64,000 nucleotides of DNA from Patescibacteria group bacterium (GTDB lineage: Bacteria; Patescibacteriota; Patescibacteriia; UBA9570): assembly GCA_041660305.1 (NCBI GenBank), contig JBAZWO010000001.1, positions 226,268-290,267 of the forward strand, read 5' to 3'. Shown here piece after piece: positions 2,731 through 41,638 of the stretch (position 1 is its first letter; the number at the start of each line of letters is the position of its first letter). The notes beneath the pieces were generated by a model, which had not been told where the DNA came from, did not search any database, and worked only from the letters and a program-made list of their open reading frames with translations. Position numbers and translations under genes: made by a program.

Positions 2731-2803
2731 AAACCTTTGTTTATTAACTATGCTTACTTGAATGAATATAAATACAGTCCTTTATTTTACACAATGCCTT
2801 TAT

Positions 2804-2890
2804 AGCGACGGCGCAGGTACAAAAAATGCTAGTTTTACCTAGCATTCATTGCCTAACACCGTTGTGGATAAGTTTTGCTAGCGACGGCGC
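2804..2890. repeat. Intergenic repeat unit A1: two AGCGACGGCGC boxes flanking a small hairpin/T-run and a TGTGGATAA box
   Basis: AGCGACGGCGC at 2804-2814 and GCGACGGCGC at 2881-2890. Hairpin ATGCTAG/CTAGCAT at about 2826-2846. TGTGGATAA at 2863-2871. The right 38 nt are nearly identical to 6374-6411. Confidence 0.8.
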
Positions 2891-2897
2891 TGAAAAT

Positions 2898-2966
2898 GTC
2901 TAGAACTATGATTTTTGTGATTTTATGATGGACTATGAAAAATCAAACTAAATCATAGTTCAAGAC
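2898..2966 (-). terminator. Long hairpin immediately after the stop codon of the 2966..3988 gene
   Basis: 17-nt arms GTCTAGAACTATGATTT (2898-2914) and AAATCATAGTTCAAGAC (2950-2966), one mismatch. On the - strand it is followed by AUUUUC. Confidence 0.5.
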
Positions 2967-3988
2967 TATTTAAATTTCACCAAATAACTAGCCACATCGT
3001 TTTCATTAACAATAACCAAAATAGATTCATCTTTTGTTTTAACAAAGCCACTTAAATAACTATTGCTATTATAGATAGAGGTGATTGTCTCATTATGGCT
3101 GTCCGTAAGCACACTGTAAGTATTGTCTGCATTAGTAACAGCAATATATAAAGCCTGTTTTGTACCGTAAATATTATTAATAGCTAATTGATTATCCAAT
3201 ATTTTTACCCAAGCAGCTTGCGGTTTTTTTTGCCAAATTGATTGTATATTATTATTAACAGTAGAGGTAATGTAAATAGCTTGATTAGCAGCCGCAATGG
3301 CTACTGCCCCACTACTATCAGTTAAATAATTACCACTCATTTTGTGCCATGATTTACCATCAGCTGAACGATACACTGCATTATTTACAACCATATACAG
3401 CCTTTTTGCAGTAGCCGCTATACTAGAAATTTGTTTTTCTTCCGGCAAACCTTTTACAATGGTATCTATACTTTCCCAATTTGTTCCGTTATTTGTTTTC
3501 CAGATACTACCATTGGCCATAGCCGCATATAAAGCTCCTTGATAACGCGCTAAACTAACAAATTGTAACGCTCCATCTTGTGTAACATTATCTATATTAA
3601 CCACCTGTTCAAACACAGTCGGGTCAGTACGCGATAAACGCCAAATTTCAGCTGAAGCTACATCCCAAGATAAATCATCGGCTCCTGTATCCGTACTAAG
3701 AACAACATAATCATAGCCTTTAAAAGGTACGGCTGTGGTTAAATCAAAGCGAGTTAAATAATTATCCGTACGCTGATAGGTTAAATTCGTTTCCTGCCAG
3801 CTATCTTTTTGCGTTGGTTGATTAGCTTGATAAAATTTTTCGCCTGATAGTATCATAGCCTTACCATCAGCCAATGGAAAATAAGTAATTAAATCATTAA
3901 ATACGGGACTAACTTGTTCAGCGGCATTGCTAGATAGTGGTATGAACAATGCTAACACTATAATAATTTTTGATACGGTTTTTAGCAT
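2966..3988 (-). CDS. Secreted Asp-box (BNR-like) repeat beta-propeller-type protein
   Basis: Signal peptide, then SxDxGxxW-like motifs (YRSADGKSWHK, WKTNNGTNWES). Paralogous in style to 4013..5098 and 26450..27601. Confidence 0.5.
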   Translation of the reverse strand: MLKTVSKIIIVLALFIPLSSNAAEQVSPVFNDLITYFPLADGKAMILSGEKFYQANQPTQKDSWQETNLTYQRTDNYLTRFDLTTAVPFKGYDYVVLSTDTGADDLSWDVASAEIWRLSRTDPTVFEQVVNIDNVTQDGALQFVSLARYQGALYAAMANGSIWKTNNGTNWESIDTIVKGLPEEKQISSIAATAKRLYMVVNNAVYRSADGKSWHKMSGNYLTDSSGAVAIAAANQAIYITSTVNNNIQSIWQKKPQAAWVKILDNQLAINNIYGTKQALYIAVTNADNTYSVLTDSHNETITSIYNSNSYLSGFVKTKDESILVIVNENDVASYLVKFK

Positions 3989-4012
3989 ATTATTATAAAT
4001 AACATTAATGTT

Positions 4013-5098
4013 TTAAAACTTCACTGTTACCGCTTCCGAACCGTTATTAGTATTTAATAAAACCTGAAACTTATGATTTAAGTGCAATACTGTATTGCCT
4101 CTACCAACCTGCTCCCAAGCCATGGCTTTATTCCAAGTAGAATCTGTATATTGATAGAGAGCCGTGCTGAGATTGGCTAAATTAGCTGAATTATATTCGG
4201 TGAGTAATAGCACAGGTTTCGCACCATTTTTGGCTAGCACGTCTACATCATAGCTTTTGGTATCGGTCCAAGCAAAACTACCGGTTTTATTCCAAGTAGC
4301 TAAATCGGCCGTAGCCCAAACAGTAGTAGCCGTACTATTTGTTGTTCCTAATAATAATTGCTTATTACTTTTAGCTAACACCGTAAATACTTCATTGTCT
4401 TGCGCGGCTGGAAAAGAACTTGCTGTAGTAAATAATTTTCCATCAGTAGAAGTAACTAATTGATAATCGTTATTAACTTGTAACACAATATTAAGCGTAT
4501 TTTTAAATGGCGTAATAGCAATAGGTAGCACAATAGATTCATTAGTATAGGGTGTAGTTACAGATTGTTCCTGTAACACATCTTTTTTTAGCATCCAATG
4601 GCTTAATGTATTATCTACATTAGAACTATATACCTGAATTTTGCCTTGGTATCTAGTTAATACTGCCTTACCGTAATAACCACCGTCGATTGTACTTATT
4701 TTTTTCCAAACGCTAGCCGCATTAATATTTCCTTCCCATAATTCAATATTCTGTCCGTTTACACCAACTGATAATAAAACGTACATTTTATCACTAAACC
4801 GTTTTAAATCTAACACTGTAGCAGGAGTAGCTGTAATATCATGCTTCGTTAATTCCTGCCATTTGCCAAAACCAGCATAATTTACAAATAATTTAATATA
4901 ACGCTCGCTGTTATTATCGCCAGCACTATAATTGATCATCGCTAAACCACCGTGTGGAATTGGTACTGAAAAAATGGCGCCCGAATTAGTGGTATTCTCA
5001 AATTGATCGATTGCCATGGTGGTAGCTTGACTAGCCACTGGTATTAAGCCAAGGCTAACTACTAAACTTACTATAAGAATTGAAAGATGTTTTTTCAT
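4013..5098 (-). CDS. Secreted repeat protein, probably beta-propeller-like (paralog family of 2966..3988)
   Basis: Signal peptide MKKHLSILIVSLVVSLGLIPVASQA and weak Asp-box-like motifs (VTSTDGKLF, WATADLATWNK). Confidence 0.4.
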   Translation of the reverse strand: MKKHLSILIVSLVVSLGLIPVASQATTMAIDQFENTTNSGAIFSVPIPHGGLAMINYSAGDNNSERYIKLFVNYAGFGKWQELTKHDITATPATVLDLKRFSDKMYVLLSVGVNGQNIELWEGNINAASVWKKISTIDGGYYGKAVLTRYQGKIQVYSSNVDNTLSHWMLKKDVLQEQSVTTPYTNESIVLPIAITPFKNTLNIVLQVNNDYQLVTSTDGKLFTTASSFPAAQDNEVFTVLAKSNKQLLLGTTNSTATTVWATADLATWNKTGSFAWTDTKSYDVDVLAKNGAKPVLLLTEYNSANLANLSTALYQYTDSTWNKAMAWEQVGRGNTVLHLNHKFQVLLNTNNGSEAVTVKF

Positions 5099-5157
5099 GG
5101 GTATATAAAATAAAGTGATTAAGAATTAAAATTATTATTTGATAAATTAATTATAAT

Positions 5158-5220
5158 ATAAAAAGAGGGAGTTGAGCAGAGGCGACACTATAGAAAATTT
5201 ATGTAGTATCGTCTCTGCTC
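5158..5220 (-). terminator. Hairpin terminator candidate downstream of the high-GC M23 gene
   Basis: GAGCAGAGGCGA (5174-5185) pairs with TCGTCTCTGCTC (5209-5220). A U-rich tract follows on the - strand after a short spacer. Confidence 0.5.
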
Positions 5221-5260
5221 GAAGAAAAGAACGTAGGCAGGCTTTTTTTGATAGGCTTGA

Positions 5261-6202
5261 TTACCGGCAACCCTCGGAGTTGAAATTGAAGCTGTATCCA
5301 GGTTGACCAGTAAAATTGTATCCGGCAAACTGGTTGCCGCAAACACTGTCGCCACTACCTGGCCACTTGCTGATAGGCAAATTCTCCTGACCAGAGAATG
5401 TTCCGCCGCTGGTACTGGTTGCGCGCAGCATTTCGATGTGAACATGGGCACCTGTGGAGCTGCCAGTGTTGCCCAGATAGCCAACGCCGCGTCCTTTAGC
5501 GATCCACCAACCCGGTACAACCATTGAAGAATCACGCATGTGCGCCAGCCGGTAATAGTAACGCTTGCCACTACCAGCATTACCACATTCTGCGATAATT
5601 TGGTTCCCATAGCTGGAGCTGTACGAAGTGTACTTTACCCAGCAGCTAGCCGGGGACTCGAGCAATTTTCCGGTTGTACCATTGGCCCAGTCCGTGGAGT
5701 AGTAGATAGACCCTGTGTGCTTGTAACAGCCGTAGCCACAGGTCATGGTGAAGGTTCCGCCGTCCATGGGCAAACGCCAGTTCCAGGGAAAGCTGTCGTA
5801 GGTGTTGGTTCCGGTACCCTGTGTGCCCTTGATAGTACCCTGCGAATTGTTGATGAAATCCAGAATGTTGTCGCCGGCCGGAGAACGAGCTTCGATGATG
5901 TCTCCGGTATGATCGTCGATATAAGTGACCAGGTACTTTTCTTCCACCTGCTCGATGAAGCCCCAGGTGGACATGGCCTCATTGGCCGAGATTACATAGG
6001 GCAACATGTCACTGTAGATCACCAGCTCCGGATTCACACCGACAGACAAGGCAATCGTCTCGGCATCTTCGAGAGAAATCATCCCCTCGACATCGTTCTG
6101 CAACTCAGTCTGAAACTCAGACGAGCTCTGATCACCACATCCGAAGAACATGGTAACCACAACCATCACACCAACCAACGTTTTCAACGAACGATCGCGC
6201 AT
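5261..6202 (-). CDS. High-GC lipoprotein precursor with a PepSY-like region and a C-terminal M23 (LytM-type) metallopeptidase domain
   Basis: GGAGG lies 5 nt upstream of the second ATG (6202). N-terminus MRDRSLKTLVGVMVVVTMFFGCG has a lipobox-like FFGC. M23 hallmarks YYYRLAHM...GNTGSSTGAHVHIE (HxH). Line 5761-5820 has 35/60 G+C. Confidence 0.8.
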   Translation of the reverse strand: MRDRSLKTLVGVMVVVTMFFGCGDQSSSEFQTELQNDVEGMISLEDAETIALSVGVNPELVIYSDMLPYVISANEAMSTWGFIEQVEEKYLVTYIDDHTGDIIEARSPAGDNILDFINNSQGTIKGTQGTGTNTYDSFPWNWRLPMDGGTFTMTCGYGCYKHTGSIYYSTDWANGTTGKLLESPASCWVKYTSYSSSYGNQIIAECGNAGSGKRYYYRLAHMRDSSMVVPGWWIAKGRGVGYLGNTGSSTGAHVHIEMLRATSTSGGTFSGQENLPISKWPGSGDSVCGNQFAGYNFTGQPGYSFNFNSEGCR

Positions 6203-6324
6203 GATAACCTCCATTTTCAGGTTGCGCGGTGATACCGTTACCTCCGTTCAAACCATCTGAAAGTAAGTAACCGTACCAACATGAATAGCATAAATAATAT
6301 CGTTATTTTTGAGAAGGGGTTTTT

Positions 6325-6411
6325 GGCGACGGCGCAACAACAAAAAACACCAGTTTCATCTGGTATTTATTAGCTAACACTGTTGTGGATAAGTTTTGCT
6401 AGCGACGGCGC
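6325..6411. repeat. Intergenic repeat unit A2 (GCGACGGCGC-bounded)
   Basis: GGCGACGGCGC at 6325-6335 and AGCGACGGCGC at 6401-6411. Hairpin ACCAG/CTGGT plus T-run on the - strand. TGTGGATAA at 6384-6392. Confidence 0.8.
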
Positions 6412-6664
6412 TAAAAACAGCACTTTCGCTGCCCTCCTTTGCCCCTACCTCTCAATGGCCGTAGAGAATATTAGTAAGGACTTAGGAGGACAACCCCACA
6501 TTAAAAACAGTAAATAACCATTTTATCGTGGAAAAAATAATAGATCACTCACCATCTATTTATGCCGTCCAACCCACCGCAGATAAACAGATTGTAAATG
6601 AGCCATTTTGGCGAAAGTGCGCTACCATTTTGCAGATATCTTTTATTTTATTCAAGAGCATTTT

Positions 6665-6751
6665 AGCGACGGCGCTAGGCTAATTTTGAACATAATAATC
6701 AATTTTATCAGGGTTAACACCGTTGTGTATAACTTTTTGTAGCGACGGCGC
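6665..6751. repeat. Intergenic repeat unit A3 (GCGACGGCGC-bounded), abutting the ssb stop codon
   Basis: AGCGACGGCGC at 6665-6675 and 6741-6751. The box here is degenerate (TGTGTATAA). The last base overlaps the ssb TAG. Confidence 0.75.
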
Positions 6752-7116
6752 TAAAATGGCTCTTCGGTAATTTCTTGCACTGTTTCGGTTGGTTTAGAAC
6801 TTAATAACATTAATCGCTCAGCGATAATGTCGGTAAAATAGTGCATTTTACCATCTTTATCTTCAGCGTTACGATACACTACCCTACCTTCCACTAATAC
6901 CTTGTCTCCTTTGTGCACATACTGCTTCATAATTTCAGATAATTTTCCCCAACCTACAATGGAATGAAACTCGGCTTTTTCTTTAGTTTCTTTGCTAGGA
7001 TTTTTCCAAATCCGATTGGTAGCTAGATGAAAATTAGTTACAGTAGTTTTATTTACCGTCCGCTGTTCTGGATCTTTAGCCACATGACCAATTAATAAAA
7101 TACGATTTAAATCCAT
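6751..7116 (-). CDS. ssb: Single-stranded DNA-binding protein
   Basis: OB-fold N-terminus MDLNRILLIGHVAKDPEQR...FHSIVGWGKLSE and an acidic C-terminal tail ending EEPF. Confidence 0.9.
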   Translation of the reverse strand: MDLNRILLIGHVAKDPEQRTVNKTTVTNFHLATNRIWKNPSKETKEKAEFHSIVGWGKLSEIMKQYVHKGDKVLVEGRVVYRNAEDKDGKMHYFTDIIAERLMLLSSKPTETVQEITEEPF

Positions 7117-7155
7117 AGAAATAATAATTAAACAAATAAAATAATAGCAGTTGAG

Positions 7156-7185
7156 TAGATACTAATGAGCGCTCATTAGTATCTA
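7156..7185. promoter_or_regulatory. Perfect 30-bp palindrome in the ssb upstream region
   Basis: TAGATACTAATGAGC|GCTCATTAGTATCTA. It is followed by a 10-bp stem, GAACCATAAC (7198-7207) with GTTATGGTTC (7262-7271). Confidence 0.6.
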
Positions 7186-7353
7186 AATACAACTGTTGAA
7201 CCATAACCGAGGATGGAACCTAACCATTTATATAGGCAATTGAGCGCTCACCTACACATCTGTTATGGTTCACTGAATTGTTAATACTGCATCATTACTA
7301 CTATTGTGGCCGCGGCAATTATTTGTCACAACAATCGTGATGACACAGTGCTT

Positions 7354-7388
7354 AGAAAAATAAAAACGCCCAAAGTTGGTTGGACGTT
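7354..7388 (-). terminator. Rho-independent terminator of the 7456..7998 gene
   Basis: The - strand reads AACGUCCAA-loop-UUGGGCGUU followed by UUUUUAUUUUU. Confidence 0.7.
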
Positions 7389-7455
7389 CTTTACTTTTCA
7401 CATGTAGTATAGCAAATATTTTATTCTCGTCAAGTGCTGTGCAGCTACTTCTGTG

Positions 7456-7998
7456 CTACTCCAAATAACATTGGTACTCTTTATCTGCTGCTATAATTTG
7501 TTTTAATAATGCACGCATTTGTTCGGCTTTATTAACATTATGCTGCCGAGCTAACCACTCTAAATATTGCTCTAGGGCTGGGGTTAATCGTAATGTAAAT
7601 TTAATCGTTGGAGCTTCAGCAATAGACACTGTTCGATCGATGGTTAATAAAAACGCCTGCACAATTTGTTCTAAGGTACGTTCTGAATAACTTTTTACTA
7701 AAATAGAGCGCGGTATATTTTTTTTCGATAAATGCGCTAACATAGCCCGTGGTACATTGTGTTTAGAGTATAAACATAAAGTTGGTTTCTGGAGAATAAT
7801 AGCCTGCGCTAATAAATAATGCATTTCCGGAGTTGGCTGGGTAATTTCTAGAATAATTCCATGCACACGTTCTAAAGTATTAGAAGCAAACTCATGATAC
7901 GACACTATCCCAACCTGCTCATGTTGCCACACTACAATATTAGCTCTTTTTAACAAGTGTGTAACTGTTGCTAGCTGGTTAGAGACAAAGATAATCAT
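7456..7998 (-). CDS. Hypothetical protein with a C-terminal ribbon-helix-helix-like segment
   Basis: 180-aa ORF. The C-terminal IKFTLRLTPALEQYLEWLARQHNVNKAEQMRALLKQ resembles a CopG/RHH fold. I did not recognise the N-terminal domain. Confidence 0.35.
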   Translation of the reverse strand: MIIFVSNQLATVTHLLKRANIVVWQHEQVGIVSYHEFASNTLERVHGIILEITQPTPEMHYLLAQAIILQKPTLCLYSKHNVPRAMLAHLSKKNIPRSILVKSYSERTLEQIVQAFLLTIDRTVSIAEAPTIKFTLRLTPALEQYLEWLARQHNVNKAEQMRALLKQIIAADKEYQCYLE

Positions 7999-8002
7999 AT
8001 AT

Positions 8003-8962
8003 TTATAATTCTTTTTGCAACCATTGTTTAAAATCAGCTAGTGTGGTAGTAACTCCTAACCCAACCATAATTTTAGTAATAGTTGAAATTAGTGTTAATT
8101 GTTGAGCAATTATTATATTATTTGGTAATTTACCTGAATAATTCTTGGTACATAAAATTACTGGAATATTAGTAGGTAATGTTAAATGAGTTAATGTGGC
8201 TGGATTAATTAAGCCTGTTAACACTAAGGCTTTAACGTTACTAGCTACGTTAATAACTGGCTGAGTTGGTAATAAAGTAATCACTTGCACTGCTTCAACA
8301 AACTTTGGATACAATTGTGGCACCTGTTTAGTACGCTTCGATACAACTGATAATAAATTAACATTAAATTGTATTTGAGCCACTGGTAGTTCTGGCCAAC
8401 TAACAAACGGCTCAATACTAAATGATTTAGCATCTATAGCGCTAGTGGCTCGTACAATAATTGTGCCATAAGCTAAAAATACTCCGCTGCAATTTAACGT
8501 AGCCAACTGTATCCCTGTGATTAAATTAGTACGTAATTGCATTTCATTGGCTACTGGTTTATTTTTTTCTAGTTGTGTTGGCTTAGGTAAAACAGTGCCA
8601 GTAAAAATAATTGGTTTCCCTAAATTTTTCAACAAATGACTTAATAAATTAGCAATATACAGTGCTGCTGAACAATCGTGCAACACAACAAAACCATCAT
8701 AATTTTGATAGTGTTTAATAATAGCTTGACCAATACTACTAGCCAAACTCCAAGTTACAGCAACAGGCTCCACCTGATTGAGGATAATAAGATCTGCTTC
8801 GGCCATGAATTGCAGATCGAGATATTCGGTTAATAGGGTGGTAGCTCGTTTGGCAGAAAATGGTTCGGTAAATTGCACTCCGCCAGCATAGAGCACTAGG
8901 ACGCGCTGTTGTTTCGCGCTAAACATGGCTACATAGTAACGTATTAGTTTTATTTTGTCCAA
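8003..8962 (-). CDS. L-asparaginase/glutaminase-fold protein with both catalytic threonine motifs replaced
   Basis: Matches the asparaginase layout: DGFVVLHDCSAALYIANLL...GKPIIFTGT, GVFLAYGTIIVRA. It has YAGGVQF in place of TGGTI and HDCSA in place of HGTDT. It overlaps murF by 13 nt. Confidence 0.5.
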   Translation of the reverse strand: MDKIKLIRYYVAMFSAKQQRVLVLYAGGVQFTEPFSAKRATTLLTEYLDLQFMAEADLIILNQVEPVAVTWSLASSIGQAIIKHYQNYDGFVVLHDCSAALYIANLLSHLLKNLGKPIIFTGTVLPKPTQLEKNKPVANEMQLRTNLITGIQLATLNCSGVFLAYGTIIVRATSAIDAKSFSIEPFVSWPELPVAQIQFNVNLLSVVSKRTKQVPQLYPKFVEAVQVITLLPTQPVINVASNVKALVLTGLINPATLTHLTLPTNIPVILCTKNYSGKLPNNIIIAQQLTLISTITKIMVGLGVTTTLADFKQWLQKEL

Positions 8963-10257
8963 CTACCGTATTGGCGCGCCAATAATTTAGTAGCTTGCTC
9001 GGGATGTTCCATTAAGGCTTGGGCTATTTTTTCTAGGCGCATGGCTTGGGAGCCTTTCATTAAAACAATATCTTGTGGTGCTAATATATTAGTGAGCTTA
9101 CTAATTAACTCGGCTGGTGTTTTGCAAATAGCAATGGCTGTGGCTGGCAAACCGGCATCCAGTGCCGCTATGGCAATACTCTCCGCTTTATCACCTAACG
9201 TAAAGAGATAATCTATTTTTAATTCGGCTACTCGTTTACCAATTAACGTATGGGCGCGCTTTGATTGACTGCCTAATTCTTCCATATTACCTAAACAAGC
9301 TATTTTTTTACCAGTCGTAGTAAGTTGTGCTAACACATTAAGCGCCTCGCGCATAGCGGCTGGTGACGCGTTATAAGTATCATCTAATATTAATGTATTA
9401 TTAATTCCAGAAATTAAGCATAACCGACCCGGCGGAGCTTGATAACTTTGCAGTGCTTTTGTCATGTCTACAAAATTTAATTCGTATACCAACCCCACCG
9501 CAATGGCAAACATAGCCGCGTACACCGCTGGCAGACCAACCACATTCGGCACAAAACAAGGTACCGTATTGCCTTGATAACGAAGCTTAAATCTTAAACC
9601 GCTAACAACGTGAGACGTATTAGTTTTTGGCCATACCGAATAATCAATATCCAGCGCTTGTAAATCCGCTGGCTCGGCTTTAAGTGAAAATGATAAGGTG
9701 CGACACTTTAATTTTGGTACAACATCTTGCACATATGGTTCATCCAAATTTAAAATTGCCCAATTATTTTTAGTTAAATGTTTTAACATGATTAATTTTT
9801 CTTGGGCTAATTGGTCTACGTCTTTAAAAAAAGCTAAATGTGCCGGTTGATCACCAATACATGTAACCATGCCAATACGCGCCGGTGCTAATTGAGTTAA
9901 ATATTTAATATCACCTGGATGATCAGCTCCCATTTCTAATATTAATATTTTTGGATACGTTAATGGCAATAAGCCATAAACCAGACCACGCATAATTACG
10001 CCTAACCAACGTAATGGATTTTTTCCACCGGCCTTACTGCCAATAATAGTGAGCGGCACGCCTAATTCATTATTATAATTAAAGCTGCTCATGCGCACCG
10101 AATAATAATTAGATAATACTGCGGCTATGGCGGTTTTGGTAGAAGTTTTTCCAACACTACCAGTAATACCGATAATTTCTGGTTGCTGTCGCCATAACAC
10201 CAGTTTAGCCAACCAATAAAGCATGCTTTGTAATATTTTACTAATTACTTGTTTCAT
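8950..10257 (-). CDS. murF: UDP-N-acetylmuramoyl-tripeptide--D-alanyl-D-alanine ligase (Mur ligase family)
   Basis: P-loop GITGSVGKTSTK and three-domain Mur ligase length. Sits directly after ftsI in the dcw cluster. Confidence 0.8.
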   Translation of the reverse strand: MKQVISKILQSMLYWLAKLVLWRQQPEIIGITGSVGKTSTKTAIAAVLSNYYSVRMSSFNYNNELGVPLTIIGSKAGGKNPLRWLGVIMRGLVYGLLPLTYPKILILEMGADHPGDIKYLTQLAPARIGMVTCIGDQPAHLAFFKDVDQLAQEKLIMLKHLTKNNWAILNLDEPYVQDVVPKLKCRTLSFSLKAEPADLQALDIDYSVWPKTNTSHVVSGLRFKLRYQGNTVPCFVPNVVGLPAVYAAMFAIAVGLVYELNFVDMTKALQSYQAPPGRLCLISGINNTLILDDTYNASPAAMREALNVLAQLTTTGKKIACLGNMEELGSQSKRAHTLIGKRVAELKIDYLFTLGDKAESIAIAALDAGLPATAIAICKTPAELISKLTNILAPQDIVLMKGSQAMRLEKIAQALMEHPEQATKLLARQYGSWTK

Positions 10258-11998
10258 CTGGCGGTAATTGATAATAATTTACTAAATATTGGGCAATGTC
10301 TTTCCATAATGGTACTACTGAACCTTCGGCCCATTCGGTACTTGGTTCACTTAACTTAGTTAACAATATAAATTGCGGATTATTCACAGGAAAACCAAGA
10401 AAAGTATCATTATGTCGATATTGATCATAACCACTATTAGTTGCTATTTGCGCTGTGCCGGTTTTTCCACCCATTAAATAACCGGCCATTTGCGCATTTT
10501 TATGTTCTTTATTTACCACACTAATTAACATTGCTCCAATTAAACGAGCCGTATTAGCTGATACTACTTGGCGTACCGCTGTTGGTTGGGTAATAATTTC
10601 GGTTTTTTCGCTGGTAATTTGTTTTTGCACTACATACGGTTTCATTAATAAACCCTGGTTAGCCAAAGCTGCATAAGCCGAAATTAATTGAATAGGTGTT
10701 ACGGTAATACCCTGACCAAATGAAGCGTTGGCCGAATAAATATCGCGCAATTCGGCTAACTGAGAAATATCACCGGCTTGTTCACCAGCTAAATCAATAC
10801 CGGTTAATTCACCAAAACCAAAATTATTAATATATTGATATAATGTTTCGTTGCCTAATAATTGGGCTACATGAATTGAACCAGTGTTGAGTGATTTTTC
10901 TAATACTTGCGTCATGGTTTGTGTACCATAGGCTTTGCCGTCGGAATTACGAATTGGTTTCGGCCAACCATTTACTTTTACCTGCCCCGCGTCTTGATAA
11001 GTTGAATTCGGCATAATTAAGCCACGATCAATCCCAGCTGCTAACGTGAATGTTTTAAATACTGAACCAGCTTCATAAGGCTTGCCAACCGCCGCATTAA
11101 TAAAAACATCAATATCAGTAACCTGATTATAATTATTTGGATCAAAACTAGGATAGTTACACATGGCTAAAATAGCCCCAGTAGCCGGATTAAGAACAAT
11201 AACCGTACCACCCTTGGCTGCAAATTTTTCAGCACTGGCTTGTAATTTTTCACAAGCAAAAAATTGTAAATTTTTATCGATAGTTAACACTAAGTCATTG
11301 CCACTAATCGCTGGCGTAATGGCAGCATCACCTAATGTTAATACTTGTCCTAAACCGCCTCTTTCCGCATTAAGTTGCCCATTTTTACCATGTAATACAG
11401 TATTATAGTAACTCTCCAAACCATATTGTCCTACTCGTTCATTATCAGCATAGCCAAAGTAACCAGTTAAGTGTGCTGTATAAGCACTATCTGGATAATA
11501 ACGCCAATCTTCATAACTAAACTTAATAGCTGATTGAACATCTGGCAAAGCAACGCTTTTAATAGCATCTACTACTTCGGTTGGTACGCGCTTTTTTAAA
11601 GTTTCGTTTGGATCATTAGTTTTGTTTAAATGTGCTAGTAACTCTTCCACCGGTTCTTGTAATAATGGCGATAATGCTTGTGCTAAAGCCGGCGCATCCT
11701 TCACGTGTACTGGTTCAGCATGTACTTCTGCCAACGTTTTATTCACCACAATCATGTATTGTTGATTCAGACTATATTTATCCTGTACATAAATTTCTCC
11801 ACGCCGTGGATAGATTTCTTCGTAGATTTTTCTGCTATCACTAGCTAAGGCCACATAATAACCATGATCTAATAACTGTAAATCAGCTAAACGGAGAATA
11901 ATAATACCAGCTAATAACATAAACCCCCAGCGCACTAGGTCAACTCGCTGCCAAGATAATTTAAATTTGGTACGTTGCGCTGGTTTGTGCCATTTCAT
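10241..11998 (-). CDS. ftsI: Penicillin-binding protein, class B transpeptidase (FtsI/PBP2 type)
   Basis: N-terminal TM segment and the SxxK (SVFK), SxN (SLN) and KTG (GKTGTA) motifs. dcw context. Confidence 0.9.
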   Translation of the reverse strand: MKWHKPAQRTKFKLSWQRVDLVRWGFMLLAGIIILRLADLQLLDHGYYVALASDSRKIYEEIYPRRGEIYVQDKYSLNQQYMIVVNKTLAEVHAEPVHVKDAPALAQALSPLLQEPVEELLAHLNKTNDPNETLKKRVPTEVVDAIKSVALPDVQSAIKFSYEDWRYYPDSAYTAHLTGYFGYADNERVGQYGLESYYNTVLHGKNGQLNAERGGLGQVLTLGDAAITPAISGNDLVLTIDKNLQFFACEKLQASAEKFAAKGGTVIVLNPATGAILAMCNYPSFDPNNYNQVTDIDVFINAAVGKPYEAGSVFKTFTLAAGIDRGLIMPNSTYQDAGQVKVNGWPKPIRNSDGKAYGTQTMTQVLEKSLNTGSIHVAQLLGNETLYQYINNFGFGELTGIDLAGEQAGDISQLAELRDIYSANASFGQGITVTPIQLISAYAALANQGLLMKPYVVQKQITSEKTEIITQPTAVRQVVSANTARLIGAMLISVVNKEHKNAQMAGYLMGGKTGTAQIATNSGYDQYRHNDTFLGFPVNNPQFILLTKLSEPSTEWAEGSVVPLWKDIAQYLVNYYQLPPDETSN

Positions 11999-12351
11999 TG
12001 TAGTAATGCCACAGCAGCATTGGTAGCTGGCAAATATTCAACTTTAGTAGTAGGGATCAGCTGACTTTGCTCACGAGCTACTAAACTAAGTCGTTGTAAT
12101 GATAACGCTTCAGCAGTATCTAACTGTAAATTTTGTTGTTGTGCCTGTAATACAGCTACTTCTTTCAGTAAGGAGTTTAAATGAAAAGTGCTGGCTGTAC
12201 CAGAATTAACTAAGCGCATATAACTAAAGCTCATTCCTAATAATACAACTAATAACACGCCGTTGGTAACAAAATAATTACGTATTTTAAACGGTTGTGT
12301 TTGTTTACGATGTTGTAATTTTTTATTAGTTAAACAAGTGAGTTTGGTCAT
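11995..12351 (-). CDS. ftsL: Cell-division protein FtsL-like (bitopic, coiled coil)
   Basis: 118 aa with a single TM segment and a heptad-like region. Sits between rsmH and ftsI. Confidence 0.6.
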   Translation of the reverse strand: MTKLTCLTNKKLQHRKQTQPFKIRNYFVTNGVLLVVLLGMSFSYMRLVNSGTASTFHLNSLLKEVAVLQAQQQNLQLDTAEALSLQRLSLVAREQSQLIPTTKVEYLPATNAAVALLQ

Positions 12352-13283
12352 ATTTTTTCTATCACCCGTAGTAAGGCACTGTGGGCTTGGGCATTACGGT
12401 TTATTTCTGCAACCGTAGGTTTAATAGGACGGGTAGTAATTAAACGGACACTAGCCTGCTGTGTACAGATACAAACTGGTACATCAGGCGCACAAATACA
12501 ATTACGAGCGGCTGCTTTAAATGTCTGTTTTACTATCCTATCTTCTAGCGAGTGAAACGTAATTACCGCTAATCGTCCACCAGGAGATAAGATAGAAATA
12601 ATATCTTGTAAAATAGCTGGCAACCAATCTAATTCTTGATTAACCGCTATGCGCAAAGCTTGAAACGTTCGTGCTGCCAAATGATGCACTGACTTTACCG
12701 AACCATGTTTTACTAGCCATAAACAATCTAATAAATCTTGTACTATGCGAAACCGTTTGGTTTTACGCCACTGTACAATCGTTCTAGCCAACACCCTAGC
12801 TTGTGGTTCTTCGCCGTATTCACGCAGTATTCTACATAATTCTCGCTCAGCCGTGTCATTTAACAGTGTGCTGGCTAAAATAATTTGGCGCTGATCCATC
12901 CGCATATCTAATACATCATTTGGCTGTTGAAAAGAAAAGCCTCTGTTTGGTGCATGTAATTGCCACAACGACACCCCTAAATCCAGTAAAGCTGCCTCTA
13001 TTTTAGTAATGTATTTGGTAACATTACGAATGTTATCATGTTTGACAATGAGCTGATTCGACTGATATTGCTTACCAAGTGTTTGCTGCACTTGTTGTAT
13101 CGCGGCCGCATCTTGATCGAAGCCTATTAACTGACCACCTGGCATAATTTGCTGCAAAATAGCAGCCGCATGACCACCACCGCCTAACGTACCATCCAAT
13201 ACTGTTAGGCCTGGCTTTAGTTGCAATGCCTCTAGCACTTCGTGAAGTAATACGGGCACATGATAAACAGCTGGTTGCGACAT
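12348..13283 (-). CDS. rsmH: 16S rRNA (cytosine1402-N4)-methyltransferase
   Basis: YHVPVLLHEVLEAL, DGTLGGGGHA and FHSLEDRIVK motifs. Follows mraZ. Confidence 0.9.
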   Translation of the reverse strand: MSQPAVYHVPVLLHEVLEALQLKPGLTVLDGTLGGGGHAAAILQQIMPGGQLIGFDQDAAAIQQVQQTLGKQYQSNQLIVKHDNIRNVTKYITKIEAALLDLGVSLWQLHAPNRGFSFQQPNDVLDMRMDQRQIILASTLLNDTAERELCRILREYGEEPQARVLARTIVQWRKTKRFRIVQDLLDCLWLVKHGSVKSVHHLAARTFQALRIAVNQELDWLPAILQDIISILSPGGRLAVITFHSLEDRIVKQTFKAAARNCICAPDVPVCICTQQASVRLITTRPIKPTVAEINRNAQAHSALLRVIEKI

Positions 13284-13368
13284 AGTTTTCTAGAAAAATT
13301 GATCTAGGTTTAAAGATCAACAGCGTGAGATGAGCGAGCATGTTCACCCCACCTTGTTGTATCTTCAA

Positions 13369-13800
13369 TTACACTCCTAATTCCCCCAATGCCTCAGCAA
13401 TATCGCCACTATCTTTTTCTGTAGCTGTTTTATAATTCTGCCAAGCCGTTTCATCCCAAATTTCTAAACGATTAAACAACCCAGCAATTACCACTTTTTT
13501 ATTAAGCGTAGCGTATTCACGTAAATATTCCGGCACAATCACTCGGCCTTGTTTATCCATTTCACAATCCATCGCCCCAGCTAACATTAACCGAGCAAAA
13601 GCTCGCGTATTGGCTTTAGAAATCGGTAAATTAGCTAGTTTTTCCGCCAATTTTTTCCACTCTTCAAACGTATAGACAAATAAACAATGATCTAATCCGC
13701 GCGTTACTACCGCGCCGGTTTTTAAAACATCACGAAACTTAATTGGTATAGCCAACCGGTTCTTATCATCAATTGTATGCGCATATTCCCCAATAAACAT
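13369..13800 (-). CDS. mraZ: Transcriptional regulator MraZ
   Basis: MFIGEYAHTIDDKNRLAIPIKFR and a second DKQGRVIVPEYLR repeat (double SpoVT/AbrB-like). Confidence 0.9.
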   Translation of the reverse strand: MFIGEYAHTIDDKNRLAIPIKFRDVLKTGAVVTRGLDHCLFVYTFEEWKKLAEKLANLPISKANTRAFARLMLAGAMDCEMDKQGRVIVPEYLREYATLNKKVVIAGLFNRLEIWDETAWQNYKTATEKDSGDIAEALGELGV

Positions 13801-13834
13801 TATTTTATCTATTATTAGTTAATAAAAAAAATTG

Positions 13835-13874
13835 TTATCCACAGTTTAGCTATCTTATCCCCACATTTATCCAC
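13835..13874 (-). promoter_or_regulatory. Direct repeats GTGGATAA / GTGGGGATAA / GTGGATAA upstream of mraZ (candidate MraZ operator; the sequence equals a DnaA-box TTATCCACA)
   Basis: + strand TTATCCACA 13835-13843, TTATCCCCACA 13855-13865, TTATCCAC 13867-13874. Two of the GTGG cores are 10 nt apart. An 8-bp IR, AGTGGTAT/ATACCACT, lies at 13887-13905. Confidence 0.5.
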
Positions 13875-13927
13875 TTTTTAGCACTGTAGTGGTATTATAT
13901 ACCACTTTTATTTATATGTAAACCACA

Positions 13928-14100
13928 TACCTCTATCCCCAACCCTTTCCCCTAATAACCTACCTCACCTCCCAACCTCCTCTCCTCAAAGGAGAGGAGG
14001 AGAAAAAATTTTATTACAAAATTCCCCTCTCCTGAGAGGAGAGGGGTGCCCGGAGGGCGGGGTGAGGTAGGTTGCTCGGAGAGAGGGGGTTGGGGATGAG
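13928..14100. repeat. Nested pyrimidine/purine palindromic element, copy B1
   Basis: Starts TACCTCTATCCCCAACCCTTTCCCCTAA and ends GGGGGTTGGGGATGAG. Inner hairpins CCTCTCCTCaaaGGAGAGG and CCCCTCTCCtgagaGGAGAGGGG. CCTACCTCACC pairs with GGTGAGGTAGG. Ends 3 nt from the kinase stop codon. Confidence 0.85.
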
Positions 14101-14103
14101 ATG

Positions 14104-15768
14104 TTATTTCTTCAATTTCGTAACCGGCAAATGTATATTAAAAGCACTACCTTTACCTAAAGCTGAAACAAAATCAATATACCCATGATGTTTTTCAATA
14201 ATATTATGTACAATATATAAGCCCAAACCAGAACCAGTCGGTTCTAAACTAGTAGCTTCTTTACCACGATAAAATTTAACAAAGATTTTTTCTTGTGTTT
14301 CCGGAGACATGCCAATACCCATATCTTTAATACTTAACACTACTTCTTTCTTTTTGTTAATTAAATTAATAGTAACCGTACTACCAGCCGCAGAATATTT
14401 TACAGCGTTTTCAATTAAATTTTGAATCGCTAGCTTCATTTTTTGTGGATCAATCGCTAATAACGGCAGCTCTGTTGGTGGTGTGTAATTTAGTTTAATC
14501 TGTTTACGTTGAGCTGTAATATTACAGCTATCTAAGACTTGCTGGACTAATTCTACTAAAGACCGATCAATAAATTGGTACATAAACTTACCCTCTTCAA
14601 TTTCGGAAATATCTAATAAATTATTTACAATTTCAATTACTTCATTATTTCGTTCGTAACCTTTTTTTAATAAATCTTTTTGTTTGTTTTGTAAGGGGCC
14701 ACCATCACCATCTAATAACAATTTAAATAACCATTTTAAAGTAGATAACGGTGTACGTAATTGATGCGCTGCTACGGAAATAAAATCTGATTTCACTTCA
14801 TCTAAATCACGTTCCCGCGTAATATCATGTAACACCACCAAACAACCTAATTTACGACGACTAACATCATGAATTGGAATTACCGTAACTTGCAACACAG
14901 TACGATTACCAGTAGCCGGAGTAATTATAATATCTTCAGTTTGTGTCCGTTTTTTAGTAAGAGCTTGGTTAATATATAGTATCACTGGATGTAAAGACCG
15001 TTCAAAATAATGTAAATGTAAAAAATTAGTAAACTGATATTTAGTATTTAATTGTAGTATTTTATGTGCATAAGGATTAATGATTAATACTTTGCCAACT
15101 GGATCTAATAAAATAATCCCGTCCATTAAACTATTAATTAAGGTAATAACTTTATCACGCTCGGCTATTACTTCTTGTTCCCGTGATCGAATAATATTAC
15201 TAATAAACGAAGCAAAAAAAGCCGTAAAAATAAAGATTAACACTACTGTAGAGGTATTGTGTAGTGTCACACTAAAATTACGAAAAAAACCCGGATCATA
15301 TCCATAGCGCCAAATATGTGGTATCGCGCCATAATACTCTAACGCTATCACTCCGACATATAATGAAACTGTAAATAATGTTAATAAAATAGTTTCAATT
15401 TCCGTTAACAAAATAATGGCCATAAAAATACTAGTGAAATAAAACAAAAACGATAAACTTTCTACACCACCAGTAGCATAAAGCATAATCGTAACTAATA
15501 ACTGATCTAACACTACTTGCAAAATACTAGTAATGTGCAAAGCTCGCTCGGATAACTGTTTTGGATCTTTACGTAAATAAAAATAAAAAATACTGTTATA
15601 ACCATAAGATACAGCTAGCAATAAAAATATTTTTAAATCAAACCGTGCCACCCCAATGGCTTTCTGAATCAAACCTAATACCACAATACCAGCATGCATA
15701 AACCACCGACTAGTTACAATATACTGCAAGGTTTTAATGCGCTTTAATTTAGTATCTTGGGAAATCAT
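14104..15768 (-). CDS. Sensor histidine kinase (multi-TM N-terminus, PAS-like, HisKA, HATPase_c)
   Basis: H-box SVAAHQLRTPLS, N-box NLIENAVKYS, G-box GSGLGLYIV. About 6 predicted TM helices. Confidence 0.85.
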   Translation of the reverse strand: MISQDTKLKRIKTLQYIVTSRWFMHAGIVVLGLIQKAIGVARFDLKIFLLLAVSYGYNSIFYFYLRKDPKQLSERALHITSILQVVLDQLLVTIMLYATGGVESLSFLFYFTSIFMAIILLTEIETILLTLFTVSLYVGVIALEYYGAIPHIWRYGYDPGFFRNFSVTLHNTSTVVLIFIFTAFFASFISNIIRSREQEVIAERDKVITLINSLMDGIILLDPVGKVLIINPYAHKILQLNTKYQFTNFLHLHYFERSLHPVILYINQALTKKRTQTEDIIITPATGNRTVLQVTVIPIHDVSRRKLGCLVVLHDITRERDLDEVKSDFISVAAHQLRTPLSTLKWLFKLLLDGDGGPLQNKQKDLLKKGYERNNEVIEIVNNLLDISEIEEGKFMYQFIDRSLVELVQQVLDSCNITAQRKQIKLNYTPPTELPLLAIDPQKMKLAIQNLIENAVKYSAAGSTVTINLINKKKEVVLSIKDMGIGMSPETQEKIFVKFYRGKEATSLEPTGSGLGLYIVHNIIEKHHGYIDFVSALGKGSAFNIHLPVTKLKK

Positions 15769-16139
15769 AAAGTAATATTAGGTAATGCTGAATAATGTGG
15801 TGTAATATATCCGACCCTGCCTGGTAAACCTACTAATTGCTGCTTATCACTCAATGGTTGGGTAATTTCTGTAAGTTGACAGGCTTGACTATATGTTAAA
15901 GCATTAAAAATAACTACTAAACAACGAATTAATGAAAATGATTTGGCCTGATTAACTAATATAATATGCTGAATTGGTTGATGCTGAATAATAGTATGTA
16001 ATACTAATAACAATTGATCAATGCGCGGTTGCTTTAACATTATCTGTTTGGCGTTAGCTAAATTATTTGGAACTCCAAACCAAAATTCCACTTGATTATT
16101 TGTTGCCGGATTACAATAAAGATAGTTTTGTGTAGTCAT
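15765..16139 (-). CDS. Hypothetical protein
   Basis: 124-aa ORF, coupled to both neighbours by 4-nt and 1-nt overlaps. No motif recognised. Confidence 0.4.
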   Translation of the reverse strand: MTTQNYLYCNPATNNQVEFWFGVPNNLANAKQIMLKQPRIDQLLLVLHTIIQHQPIQHIILVNQAKSFSLIRCLVVIFNALTYSQACQLTEITQPLSDKQQLVGLPGRVGYITPHYSALPNITL

Positions 16140-16789
16140 TAACTTAATAGCTGATGTACGGCTGTTATCATACCACTAAAAGATGCTCTTTGCCTACTAG
16201 CTTGGCTTGGTAATCTTACACTATTTGGCAACACTCCAGGTGTTAAATAATTAACTGTAATATATGTCTGTGCCAACAACTTAGCCCATGATTTGGTTAA
16301 AATAATCACGCCTGTTTTAGCAATAAAATACGGTACGGTATAACGCTTGGCCGCTAATTGCTCTGCACCGGCACAGCTAATATTAATAATCCGGCCAGCT
16401 TGGCTTTTTTTTAATAACGGTACTGCCTGTTTGGTACATAACGCTACCGAAAATAAATTCGATGCTAACACTGTTTGCCAGTCTTGTAACGTAAGTTTAG
16501 ATAATAATTGATAACTACCTAACTCCCCTACATTATTAATGAGGACGTCTAATTTACCGTATTGTTTTTTTATGCTGTTAAATAATTGTTTAACTTCTGC
16601 TTCTTTAGTAAGATCGGCTGATAATATTATCGACTGTGGGGTATAATGTTTTACTTGTGTTAACACTTGCTGTGCTGCTACAACACTAGTGCGATAATGA
16701 ACAATAATAGTATAACCCTGTTTAGCCAGCGCCAGCGCTAATGTTTTACCTAGCCCTTTAGCACTACCCGTAATTAACGCTACTGGCAT
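16139..16789 (-). CDS. Short-chain dehydrogenase/reductase (SDR)
   Basis: TGSAKGLGK (TGxxxGxG), NNVG, YFIAK (YxxxK). Confidence 0.8.
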   Translation of the reverse strand: MPVALITGSAKGLGKTLALALAKQGYTIIVHYRTSVVAAQQVLTQVKHYTPQSIILSADLTKEAEVKQLFNSIKKQYGKLDVLINNVGELGSYQLLSKLTLQDWQTVLASNLFSVALCTKQAVPLLKKSQAGRIINISCAGAEQLAAKRYTVPYFIAKTGVIILTKSWAKLLAQTYITVNYLTPGVLPNSVRLPSQASRQRASFSGMITAVHQLLS

Positions 16790-39254: not shown

Positions 39255-39593
39255 ATGAAGAACTCATTGTTGGTTAGTTTTTCGATGTTGGTGTTTGGTT
39301 GTTTCATGGGGTGCCTGCCGGATGTTCCTTTGGAGGAAGGAAGTCCAACTCCAGATGCTGAAGTCGGGTGTTATACCGACGACGACAGAGACGGATACAT
39401 CTCCGCCGCATGCGGGTACGGGACGGAGAGTCCCGACTGCGACGATGGCGACCCCAACGTGAACCCCGGCGTCACAGAGATCTGCGGCGACGGAATTGAC
39501 AATAACTGCGGGGGAATGATTGATGAGGATTGCCCTAGCCCCGCCGTCGTTGACGAAATTTCTTTAGGGGAGGAGATCAACGAAGGGCTTTGA
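39255..39593 (+). CDS. High-GC small lipoprotein precursor with one Cys-rich MopE-like (putative metal-binding) repeat
   Basis: SD plus ATG. MKNSLLVSFSMLVFGCFMGC, then DDDRDGY...DCDDGDPNVNPGVTEICGDGIDNNCGGMIDE. Confidence 0.75.
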   Translation: MKNSLLVSFSMLVFGCFMGCLPDVPLEEGSPTPDAEVGCYTDDDRDGYISAACGYGTESPDCDDGDPNVNPGVTEICGDGIDNNCGGMIDEDCPSPAVVDEISLGEEINEGL

Positions 39594-39788
39594 GCCTTTC
39601 GTGAAAAAAGCGAGCAAGCGCTCGCGTCTCATAAGAGATAGCTCTGGATACTCCAGAGGCGGAATGAGAATAATGAGACTTACTTGCAAATGCAAAATCT
39701 TGTTCTTCGTTCTTGTGCACGTAAACTTTGTTGCGTGCAGAAGAACAGAAATAACCCAATCAAGGGTTGTTTCTATCACGGTTACTAT

Positions 39789-39941
39789 GTGTTTCGCTCT
39801 TTGAAATAAAGATGCATTCAAGTCTAAATTATAAATTTTAATAATCTATATTTTAGATCTGAGTGCATCGCTTTACTGAATTTTTGGTAAAGTACGGATG
39901 CATCAGGCAGGAGCCCGATTATTGGGCCAAAAGGAGATGGG
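39789..39941 (+). promoter_or_regulatory. Conserved cassette leader, copy 2
   Basis: Identical to copy 1 through hairpin 1. Hairpin 2 has a diverged sequence but keeps its pairing. Hairpin 3 is GCCCGATTATTGGGC. Confidence 0.8.
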
Positions 39942-40628
39942 ATGAGAAATTTACTAGTCGCGGTTCTTGGTTTTTTGTTTCTTGTTGCCGGATTTTTTTT
40001 CATCGGCTGCGGGCCGATGGAAGAAGATGACGATTGTTCGGCTGCGTATAGCAGCGCTACGCCAGTGACGGACGACTGGCGGCCGGAGACAGAGGTCATC
40101 CTAGATGATGTCCTCTGGATTAGCCAGGCACCGCCGTCTTTGGATTGTGGCCCCACCACACTGGAGATGGCGTGGGCGTTTTTGGATGGAGAAATTCCAA
40201 CGTACGATCCAGGCGTCATTGATATAATGGCATGGATGGATGAACACGTCGATACATATGATAACGGGGGTCTGACAAATATGGTTGAGTTGGCGTACAC
40301 CAGCTTGTGGTATTTACAGCTCCCAGCGGAGGCATTCGGAGATGATCTCTGTATATCGATCGGCGGGTTGGAGGGGTTATACAATGAACTCCTGCTTGGA
40401 AAGCCAGTAGGATTCTCAAGCTATGGGCAAGAGGCTAATGCCTCAACGGCCGAAATGACGGCCGATGGAACAGGCCATGCTATGCTCCTTGTGGGCATGA
40501 CACCCACTGAAATCGTGGTGCACGACTCTAGTCAAAGCTCTGATTTTGGAGCTTATCGCCGCTTCAGTATCGAGAGTTTCGACCGAGTTGGTTGGAATTC
40601 TCACGGCGGGGTGAGGTTTATGCCGTAG
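39942..40628 (+). CDS. High-GC lipoprotein precursor with a C39-like papain-fold cysteine peptidase domain
   Basis: MRNLLVAVLGFLFLVAGFFFIGCG. SQAPPSLDCGPTTLEMAWAFLDG fits Q...CG..(L)xM, and GHAMLLVGMTPTEIVVHDS fits His...Asp. Confidence 0.65.
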   Translation: MRNLLVAVLGFLFLVAGFFFIGCGPMEEDDDCSAAYSSATPVTDDWRPETEVILDDVLWISQAPPSLDCGPTTLEMAWAFLDGEIPTYDPGVIDIMAWMDEHVDTYDNGGLTNMVELAYTSLWYLQLPAEAFGDDLCISIGGLEGLYNELLLGKPVGFSSYGQEANASTAEMTADGTGHAMLLVGMTPTEIVVHDSSQSSDFGAYRRFSIESFDRVGWNSHGGVRFMP

Positions 40629-40664
40629 TCCCAAAGCTCTCGTCAACCTTGACGAGGCAGAATC

Positions 40665-40880
40665 AAAACGCTGGAGCTCTGAAAGTCTAAACACTTTCAT
40701 CTCCACTAATTTCTAGGGCACAGAAAAGTGGTTCGCTCTTTAAAAATAAAGATGCATTCAAGTCTAAGTTATAGATTTTAATAATCTATATCTTAGATCT
40801 GAGTGCATCGCTTCGCTAATATTTAGCAAAGTACAGATGCATCAGGCAGAGGCCCAATCATTGGGTCAAAAGGAGAAGAG
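40665..40880 (+). promoter_or_regulatory. Conserved cassette leader, copy 3 (core 40728-40880) with a 63-nt 5' extension shared with copy 4
   Basis: The extension AAAACGCTGGAGCTCTGAAAGTCTAAACACTTTCATCTCCACTAATTTCTAGGGCACAGAAAA contains the hairpin GGAG..GAAAGT/ACTTTC..CTCC. Confidence 0.8.
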
Positions 40881-41498: not shown

Positions 41499-41638
41499 AA
41501 AACCCCACAACGCTTTTGTCTCCGTTTGAGCGATCGGCGGTATAGCCGATAACAAATGGAGAGCCGCCGCGGCGGAGCAGACTGCCGCAACAAACCATAT
41601 TTTTTCTGTCACCTGCGAAGGTAGGGAAAAATTGGTTA

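Follow-up and report, generated by a model that had tools for sequence, protein, structure and literature searches.

LytM, lysostaphin, zoocin A and ShyA are M23 enzymes with a Peptidase_M23 domain (PF01551), an Asp, a catalytic His and an HxH motif, and characterised M23 enzymes carry SH3b, LysM or coiled-coil modules. The beta-lytic proteases and LasA (M23A; Lysobacter, Achromobacter, Pseudomonas) are secreted, disulfide-containing, bacteriolytic enzymes which serve as predatory or competitive weapons; their first zinc-binding His is found far upstream of the Asp instead of in an HxxxD motif, and they are made with long propeptides and are no lipoproteins. Patescibacteria live attached to other bacteria, and to our knowledge it is largely unknown how they breach or remodel the wall of the partner. 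An anomaly in G+C content of the size of one open reading frame (ORF) is normally taken as recent horizontal transfer. Horizontally transferred genes and genomic islands have been documented in Patescibacteria (PMC12455944), and secreted wall hydrolases were proposed to act on the partner in Vampirococcus, a predator from the candidate phyla radiation (CPR) (PMC8080830). We analysed 64,000 nt from a Patescibacteria group bacterium (GCA_041660305.1, contig JBAZWO010000001.1, positions 226,268 to 290,267), here called the window, in which a GC-rich gene on the - strand encodes a predicted M23 lipoprotein. M23 enzymes and horizontal transfer in Patescibacteria are already known; the domain combination of this protein is undescribed, and the unusual feature is an ORF-sized GC anomaly that persists in orthologues at conserved positions.

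Judged from its sequence, the M23 protein is most likely a surface-anchored peptidoglycan endopeptidase of high-GC ancestry. Our best explanation, with a probability of roughly 0.6, is that the gene encodes a lipid-anchored, secreted M23 zinc endopeptidase of high-GC ancestry and is a long-standing accessory gene of the lineage, not a recent solitary import. A preliminary description, made from the letters of the stretch, had named an M23 domain, and the Pfam search agreed (PF01551 Peptidase_M23, E = 1e-10, scoring 42 bits where the cut-off is 28.7). Profile matches in PDB were obtained to Csd, ShyA, lysostaphin and LytM, and Foldseek returned 42 PDB matches at E <= 1e-3, including ShyA, zoocin A, lysostaphin, LytM, EnpA and Csd as well as EnvC and DipM, with the top-ranked all being M23 domains (E = 1e-5 to 1e-4). 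In 11 aligned family sequences Cys22, Asp171, His221 and His253-x-His255 (H253-V-H255) are invariant, the latter three lying in or beside the catalytic core, and the HxH aligns with that of Csd and TagE chains in the PDB sequence alignments. Six or seven Cys are also conserved across the family alignment. The protein is likely to be catalytically competent; it is graded no higher because HxxxD is replaced by YxxxD with a His further upstream, which sits 6-11 residues before the Asp in every family member. The N-terminus (MRDRSLK-TLVGVMVVVTMFFG-C) combines a positively charged n-region with a hydrophobic h-region, the lipobox Cys falls among the first 40 residues, and the lipobox MRDRSLKTLVGVMVVVTMFFGC fits the PROSITE-type pattern in a pattern scan.

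The M23 protein therefore resembles LytM, lysostaphin, zoocin A and ShyA in Pfam family, fold, Asp, catalytic His, HxH and (predicted) secretion, and differs from the LytM type in YxxxD for HxxxD, the His further upstream, the six or seven Cys and the lipoprotein anchor. With LasA and the beta-lytic proteases it shares an upstream His, whereas its His-Asp spacing of 6-11 residues differs, and no sequence or structural match of the M23 protein to either was found. Where characterised M23 enzymes have SH3b, LysM or coiled-coil modules, it carries a novel N-terminal domain with the predicted order helix, four strands, helix; a coiled-coil segment was seen neither in the family alignment nor in the AlphaFold2 (AF2) model. 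This domain had no Pfam match, PepSY included, and its sole suggestive fold match was the C-terminal domain of YpeB (5boi, probability 0.95, E = 0.3, a weak match), a region which consists of PepSY domains. The domain is thus possibly PepSY-like, as judged from the model. Like the PepSY domains of the YpeB/SleB system and of M4 propeptides, it would place a helix on a four-stranded sheet directly N-terminal to a lytic domain; an inhibitory role as in those systems would here be pure conjecture.

In the proposed mechanism the protein would leave the cytoplasm through Sec, receive its lipid at Cys22 and be exposed on the cell surface at the outer face of the membrane, where it would cleave peptide cross-links of peptidoglycan in a zinc-dependent manner. 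The target would more probably be the wall of the partner bacterium than that of the epibiont itself, and the N-terminal domain may, speculatively, hold the enzyme latent as an intramolecular inhibitor. The likeness to the Vampirococcus hydrolases (PMC8080830) is in this same point, namely that peptidoglycan hydrolysis by a secreted enzyme is plausibly directed at the wall of the host.

The family is tiny: 5.8 billion proteins yielded 12 members, and 1.84 billion representatives yielded about 14 full-length clusters. All inspected members except the distant P0012 have a signal peptide ending in a lipobox-type Cys, and most of those recovered come from loci of Patescibacteria type, in which the neighbouring genes are partly conserved. 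In four loci, L001 (from NCBI Patescibacteria), L010, L011 and L013, the M23 gene is divergent from the PGK glycolysis operon. PGK identity among these loci is 66 to 87%, and the M23 identities follow the PGK grouping ((L001, L010), (L011, L013)); L011 and L013 are fully syntenic, with PGK 87% and M23 77% identical. The ratio of nonsynonymous to synonymous substitution rates (dN/dS) was 0.15-0.33 for M23 versus 0.05 for PGK. In the closest relative, L012, the M23 protein is 58% identical at a dS of about 1.2, and the gene is accompanied by the same upstream repeat as in the window (GCCGTCGC…CAAAACTTATCCACA…GCGCCGTCGC) and the same terminator stem (GCAGAGGCG…CGCCTCTGC), a stem sequence which occurs once in the window. 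Downstream of M23, the 361-aa gene of the window (no Pfam match) corresponds to a 360-aa gene after M23 in L010 (BLASTP, 28% over 306 aa, E = 4e-41). From the repeat and terminator in L012 and the partner in L010 it follows that the neighbourhood of the window M23 gene predates this genome. These two loci and the position beside PGK shared by four loci speak against the solitary, separate acquisition that the preliminary description had proposed.

Only two homologues lie in genuinely high-GC genomes, both with native composition: P0009 on a 100-kb Myxococcota contig (75% G+C) and P0005 on a 44-kb contig (72% G+C) labelled Alphaproteobacteria by NCBI. Both nest inside the tree: P0009 is the sister of the L008/L007 clade (100% bootstrap), and P0005 belongs to the clade of the window. 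The gene would thus be of high-GC, Myxococcota-like ancestry and already at its locus, together with repeat, terminator and downstream partner, in relatives of the present genome. Family scans of metagenome and viral contigs gave no confirmed relatives, hence no sign of a phage vehicle. In five loci the M23 homologue is followed by a secreted protein of 184-251 aa and host composition, here called X, which had no Pfam match and no copy in the window and may be a functional partner or an immunity protein. In L008 (Ca. Kerfeldbacteria AQU-08) two further genes rich in G+C at third codon positions (GC3) adjoin the M23 homologue (3957-5600 and 7811-8302; GC3 0.74 and 0.76 versus about 0.4), and the product of one of them is a wall hydrolase with a CHAP domain and FG-GAP repeats. 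Clustering of GC-rich hydrolase genes is thus seen in a second Patescibacteria genome.

The M23 ORF has a G+C content of 0.52 against 0.37 for the window overall, in which nearly all genes are on the - strand. The GC-rich island of about 1.1 kb at 58% described earlier was thus recovered as an island, the 58% being a local value only (100-nt windows peak at 0.55-0.60). GC3 of the M23 ORF was 0.63 versus 0.18-0.43 in 53 host-type ORFs, and the only other GC3 outliers in the 64 kb were four cassette ORFs (0.53-0.66). Of its 16 Leu codons none is TTA, versus a fraction of 0.60 in the host, with CTG at 0.38 and TTG at 0.50, and ATC, AAG, GAG and CAG are preferred. A foreign codon usage, as the preliminary description implied, was borne out for M23 (r = 0.51 with genes of a high-GC genome, -0.10 with the host); in composition M23 is foreign in the manner of the cassette ORFs, and the codon usage of cassettes 2 and 3 correlates poorly with that of M23. 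The codon table looks like a diluted high-GC usage, which alone would fit a transfer under amelioration.

The same excess was found beyond the window. GC3 of the M23 gene and of its neighbours was 0.63 and 0.28 in the window, 0.80 and 0.50 in L001, 0.97 and 0.70 in L010, 0.75 and 0.42 in L011, 0.83 and 0.50 in L013, 0.85 and 0.40 in L008, and 0.51 and 0.42 in L007; in L012, which has no neighbouring gene, it was 0.84 with non-coding flanks of 0.43-0.44 G+C. M23 is therefore above its surroundings in 8 of 8 Patescibacteria-type loci, by about 0.3 in seven and about 0.09 in one, and the directly adjoining genes (X and the 361-aa gene) have host composition. Within the L001 contig the G+C content falls from about 0.48 to about 0.35 (11000-17053); this NCBI Patescibacteria contig is a compositional mosaic, so that "host GC" at L001 is uncertain.

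Between L011 and L013 the synonymous states of neighbouring genes, scored as strong or weak pairing (S/W), are 79-105% saturated (Nei-Gojobori NG86 dS 1.6 or undefined), and both M23 copies keep a GC3 excess of about +0.33. In L001/L010 and in the clade-versus-clade pairs PGK is likewise saturated and the M23 excess still present. Under two-state decay from an ancestor with GC3 = 1.0, GC3 would now be at most about 0.59-0.68 in L011 and 0.65-0.72 in L013, and the observed 0.75 and 0.83 exceed these bounds. Since the excess is found in syntenic pairs with saturated neighbours, a single recent import that then decayed neutrally fails to account for the family; the GC-rich codons were either maintained or repeatedly renewed at the same loci. 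S/W saturation was also considered as proof of stationarity and rejected as uninformative, because independent decay from an all-GC ancestor yields the same mismatch fraction. It is possible, and we put it forward tentatively as somewhat doubtful, that the GC-rich synonymous usage is no fading mark of transfer but a state that is stationary and particular to the gene, being kept up in the face of strong AT mutation pressure. Such a state perhaps extends to a wider class of Cys-rich secreted lipoprotein genes in Patescibacteria, among them the four cassettes and the CHAP gene of L008. If true, synonymous sites would be under selection, which might favour, for instance, stable mRNA, rare codons that make translation slow or conditional, or escape from AU-targeting nucleases, and this selection would be strong in organisms in which selection is thought to be weak. 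If the persistence of the anomaly holds, calls of horizontal transfer based on composition need a caveat in reduced genomes.

The preliminary description assigned M23 and the four cassette lipoproteins to one donor pool. A shared high-GC source has some support, which is suggestive only: apart from the composition class, the M23 homologue in L002, a metagenome-assembled genome (MAG) of 72% G+C, is 53% identical and directly adjoins a MopE-repeat gene. For cassette 4 no better match turned up than this gene (47% over 156 aa, E = 5e-25), which matches cassette 1 as well. This match remains suggestive because MopE repeats are highly stereotyped. In homologue searches cassette 2 matched only itself, and cassette 3 matched nothing, not even itself, being absent from the 15-billion-protein collection. 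An origin of cassette 2 from the C39_2 gene of the host (34088-35239) was rejected (only 23% identity, E = 0.01). The shared signal style was confirmed, with Phe at -2/-3 of the lipobox Cys in all five GC-rich ORFs versus LxGAGC in three native paralogous lipoproteins. The FFGCG lipobox as a mark of the donor, by contrast, had to be given up: the M23 homologues carry AGC, VAC, IAC, TGC, FGC and similar lipoboxes, both homologues from high-GC genomes included, and the FFGC style therefore arose in this lineage. The leader upstream of M23 is unrelated to the cassette leader, as had been stated.

Three other explanations were weighed against a long-standing, lipid-anchored wall endopeptidase. The GC-rich M23 island could be a chimera of assembly or binning, with a fragment of a high-GC organism joined into a Patescibacteria contig; in favour are the abruptness of the GC step and the shared limits of contigs, of which two have their end at 5196 and two their start at 6411. 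Each junction is, however, spanned at 100% identity by a different assembly from a different sample: L004, an NCBI contig from a second MAG, equals window 16202..5196 and covers the ssb-repeat-M23 junction, and L005, a Logan contig (SRR18595301), equals window 6411..2862 and covers the junction from M23 to the downstream genes. A further Logan contig, L006 (SRR6484324), equals window 6411..5196, also at 100% identity. The breaks at 6411 are explained by the exact 31-mer common to two repeat copies, and a GC step of the size of one ORF is seen again in seven further loci, which come from NCBI, JGI and Logan assemblies. NCBI moreover holds a protein with 100% identity to the M23 protein, encoded on a 491,640-bp contig of a "Patescibacteria group bacterium" MAG, and the 90% cluster look-up gave only alternative start calls of the same genes in two MAGs of one organism. 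The island is genuine and a chimera very unlikely, close to negligible, which settles the doubt about an artefact raised at the outset. A single recent capture from the donor of the four cassettes, with the GC excess not yet ameliorated and the FFGC lipobox brought along, is rather improbable. It would account for the cassette-like GC3 of M23 (0.63 versus 0.28), Leu codons that look half-ameliorated, the adjacency of M23 and MopE genes in L002 and the Phe-rich lipobox of all five ORFs. Against it stand the flanking repeat and terminator in L012 despite 58% identity and a dS of about 1.2, the downstream partner conserved with L010, the other lipoboxes of the orthologues, the GC3 excess in syntenic pairs with synonymously saturated neighbours, and the lack of any integrase, transposase or recombinase among the 29 window ORFs scanned. 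As a candidate transferred island, M23 is atypical in composition, yet relatives share its flanks and neighbour and mobility genes were not found in the ORFs scanned. It resembles the islands documented in Patescibacteria (PMC12455944) in being accessory and of atypical composition within the reduced genome of an epibiont, and differs from them in an anomaly that is limited to a single ORF, is found again in orthologues at conserved positions and seems not to be transient.

The enzyme could also serve the cell's own wall, either as an endopeptidase of division and remodelling or as a non-catalytic LytM-type amidase activator like EnvC or NlpD. Degenerate LytM domains are known amidase activators, which would suit the non-canonical YxxxD and the presence of EnvC and DipM among the PDB matches. 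CPR genomes were reported with DD-endopeptidases for self-remodelling as well as for prey (PMC8080830). The family, however, is tiny, patchy and not universal in Patescibacteria, Asp171, His221 and His253-x-His255 are invariant, dN/dS is above that of the neighbours, six or seven conserved Cys and a lipid anchor are present with no coiled-coil noted, and there are homologues in Myxococcota and a CHAP hydrolase neighbour in L008; an own-wall function is thus unlikely. Because of the patchy distribution, the Myxococcota homologues, the many Cys, the higher dN/dS and the CHAP neighbour, we infer an accessory gene acting on the partner bacterium and not division housekeeping. Several points weigh against the long-standing surface endopeptidase that we prefer. 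The full-length AF2 model, built from 11 family members, is only moderate (pLDDT, the predicted local distance difference test score, 55), the canonical first zinc-ligand motif is YxxxD throughout the family, and the PepSY-like assignment comes from one weak structural match. The congruence of M23 and PGK over four taxa is weak evidence for vertical descent; L010, L011, L013, L007 and L012 are unlabelled metagenome contigs called Patescibacteria only by synteny or similarity to labelled loci, and the neutral-decay bound was calculated with a simple two-state model. If the surface endopeptidase is accepted, a rare, fast-evolving M23 enzyme shared with predatory Myxococcota would be a candidate for the interface with the host wall.

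Table 1. Positions of the M23 gene, its parts and related features (window coordinates unless a locus is named)
Feature	Coordinates	Strand	Remarks
M23 lipoprotein coding sequence	5261..6202	-	313 aa from second ATG, stop codon included; ORF list
Shine-Dalgarno GGAGG	6208..6212	-	5 nt before ATG at 6202; direct sequence reading
Terminator-like hairpin, 17-bp stem, 3' of M23 gene	5174..5222	-	-23.7 kcal/mol, z = -4.7
Predicted signal peptide and lipobox, MRDRSLKTLVGVMVVVTMFFG before Cys22	6137..6202	-	lipobox pattern scan; family alignment
N-terminal alpha/beta domain, residues 35-125	5828..6100	-	AF2 pLDDT 90
M23 catalytic core, residues 176-260	5423..5677	-	Pfam, family alignment, PDB sequence alignments, Foldseek
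361-aa secreted protein, downstream neighbour of M23	4013..5098	-	host composition (GC3 0.27); conserved in L010
Repeat unit upstream of M23	6303..6417 (GCGACGGCGC-bounded part 6326-6411)		homologous unit at same place in L012
Second repeat unit	6643..6757 (GCGACGGCGC-bounded part 6666-6751)		abuts ssb stop codon
Third repeat unit	2782..2896 (bounded part 2805-2890)		downstream of 340-aa gene
Cassette array, four GC-rich lipoprotein ORFs	39255..42480	+	composition class and signal-peptide style of M23, not part of M23 unit
C39_2 and LTD protein	34088-35239		
Three paralogous LxGAGC lipoproteins	35258-38620		
Partner X	L001 9248-10003; L007 2712-3446; L008 6961-7677; L011 7111-7665; L013 7070-7624		

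As had been described, the island holds one - strand gene with its own GGAGG and a hairpin terminator (Table 1). An antisense ORF at 5540-6232 was rejected as a gene; it is an expected by-product of the high GC3. Stops are rare in its frame, in which the first position of each codon stands opposite the A-poor third positions of M23. Contigs L004 and L006 both end exactly at 5196, in the loop of the hairpin at 5174-5222; no explanatory repeat for this break was found within the window, and it might reflect population heterogeneity or a recombination point.

Of the GCGACGGCGC-bounded repeats, the two placed 5' of the gene by the preliminary description were recovered, and it had missed a third, the unit at 2782-2896, which is 80% identical to the copy at 6303-6417 and has an exact 31-mer in common with it. 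A pattern scan for GCGACGGCGC gave 10 matches with <=1 mismatch (6 exact) versus about 1 expected by chance. The units are about 100 nt long, with near-palindromic ends (TTTTAGCGnCGnCGCTAAAA, TTTT(A/G)GCGACGGCGC…) that pair with each other (z about -3), and each holds an internal TTATCCACA or TTATACACA, the unit next to M23 holding TTATCCACA. On the - (coding) strand the units upstream of M23 and at 2782-2896 form a terminator-type hairpin with a T-run, of which the unit at 6643-6757 has a weak equivalent only. Two units stand directly after genes (ssb and the 340-aa gene) and one about 100 nt upstream of M23, as in L012. A metagenome scan for the flanking repeat (GCCGTCGC N2-3 CAAAACTTATCCACA) gave 0 matches, with no closer relatives or empty sites. 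From their sequence the repeats are read as lineage-specific, structured intergenic terminator or insulator repeats. An integron attC reading was rejected: the ends are TTTTAGCGACGGCGC, no RYYYAAC/GTTRRRY core site was seen by eye, and no recombinase was among the 29 ORFs. A DnaA-box reading of the internal TTATCCACA was treated as unproven; exact copies also lie at 13835 and 49318, there is no switch of GC skew, and all genes are on one strand. Three TTATCCACA-like boxes lie within 40 nt (13835-13875) upstream of mraZ.

Rfam searches of the window, of the locus at a relaxed threshold and of seven homologous loci found only two tRNAs and chance-level matches; the M23 leaders are therefore not a known riboswitch. 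The leaders of L011 (5616-6000) and L013 (5672-6000) share conserved blocks such as CCACCCCGT.AG.AGATC.T.GGTGTC.ACCC…TCTTCTGGCGCAAGTCAGA, which suggests a structured 5' leader in these two M23 orthologues; no Rfam match was found for it either. In front of each cassette ORF (window 39040-42500) stands a conserved, AT-rich leader, about 130-210 nt long and 69-95% identical between copies, which holds a long imperfect palindrome (GATGCATTCAAGTCTAA…TTAGATCTGAGTGCATC) and extends to the GGAG/ATG, and promoter-like boxes (TTGACT-17-TACTAT) stand before cassette 1. The array is flanked by an ArsR/helix-turn-helix gene (38645-38965) and a Fic gene (42600-43622), with no recombinase found, and a native AT-rich secretome cluster (34088-38620) lies directly upstream.

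Three further repeat families were seen in the window. A 41-nt motif (…CTACCTCTATCCCCAACCCTTTCCCCTAA…), G-rich on the - strand, lies at 13918-13958, 19158-19198 and 60722-60762, each time a short way upstream of a - strand gene (mraZ and genes of 764 aa and 837 aa), and may be a shared 5' leader or regulatory site. A 51-nt repeat, 84% identical between its two intergenic copies (29760-29810 and 43652-43702), has three operator-like TTGTAAAC units. A 52-nt family (…GACTACTTACGAYGAAATTCGAAC…) is found near gene ends at 34013-34064, 43764-43815 and 45793-45844.

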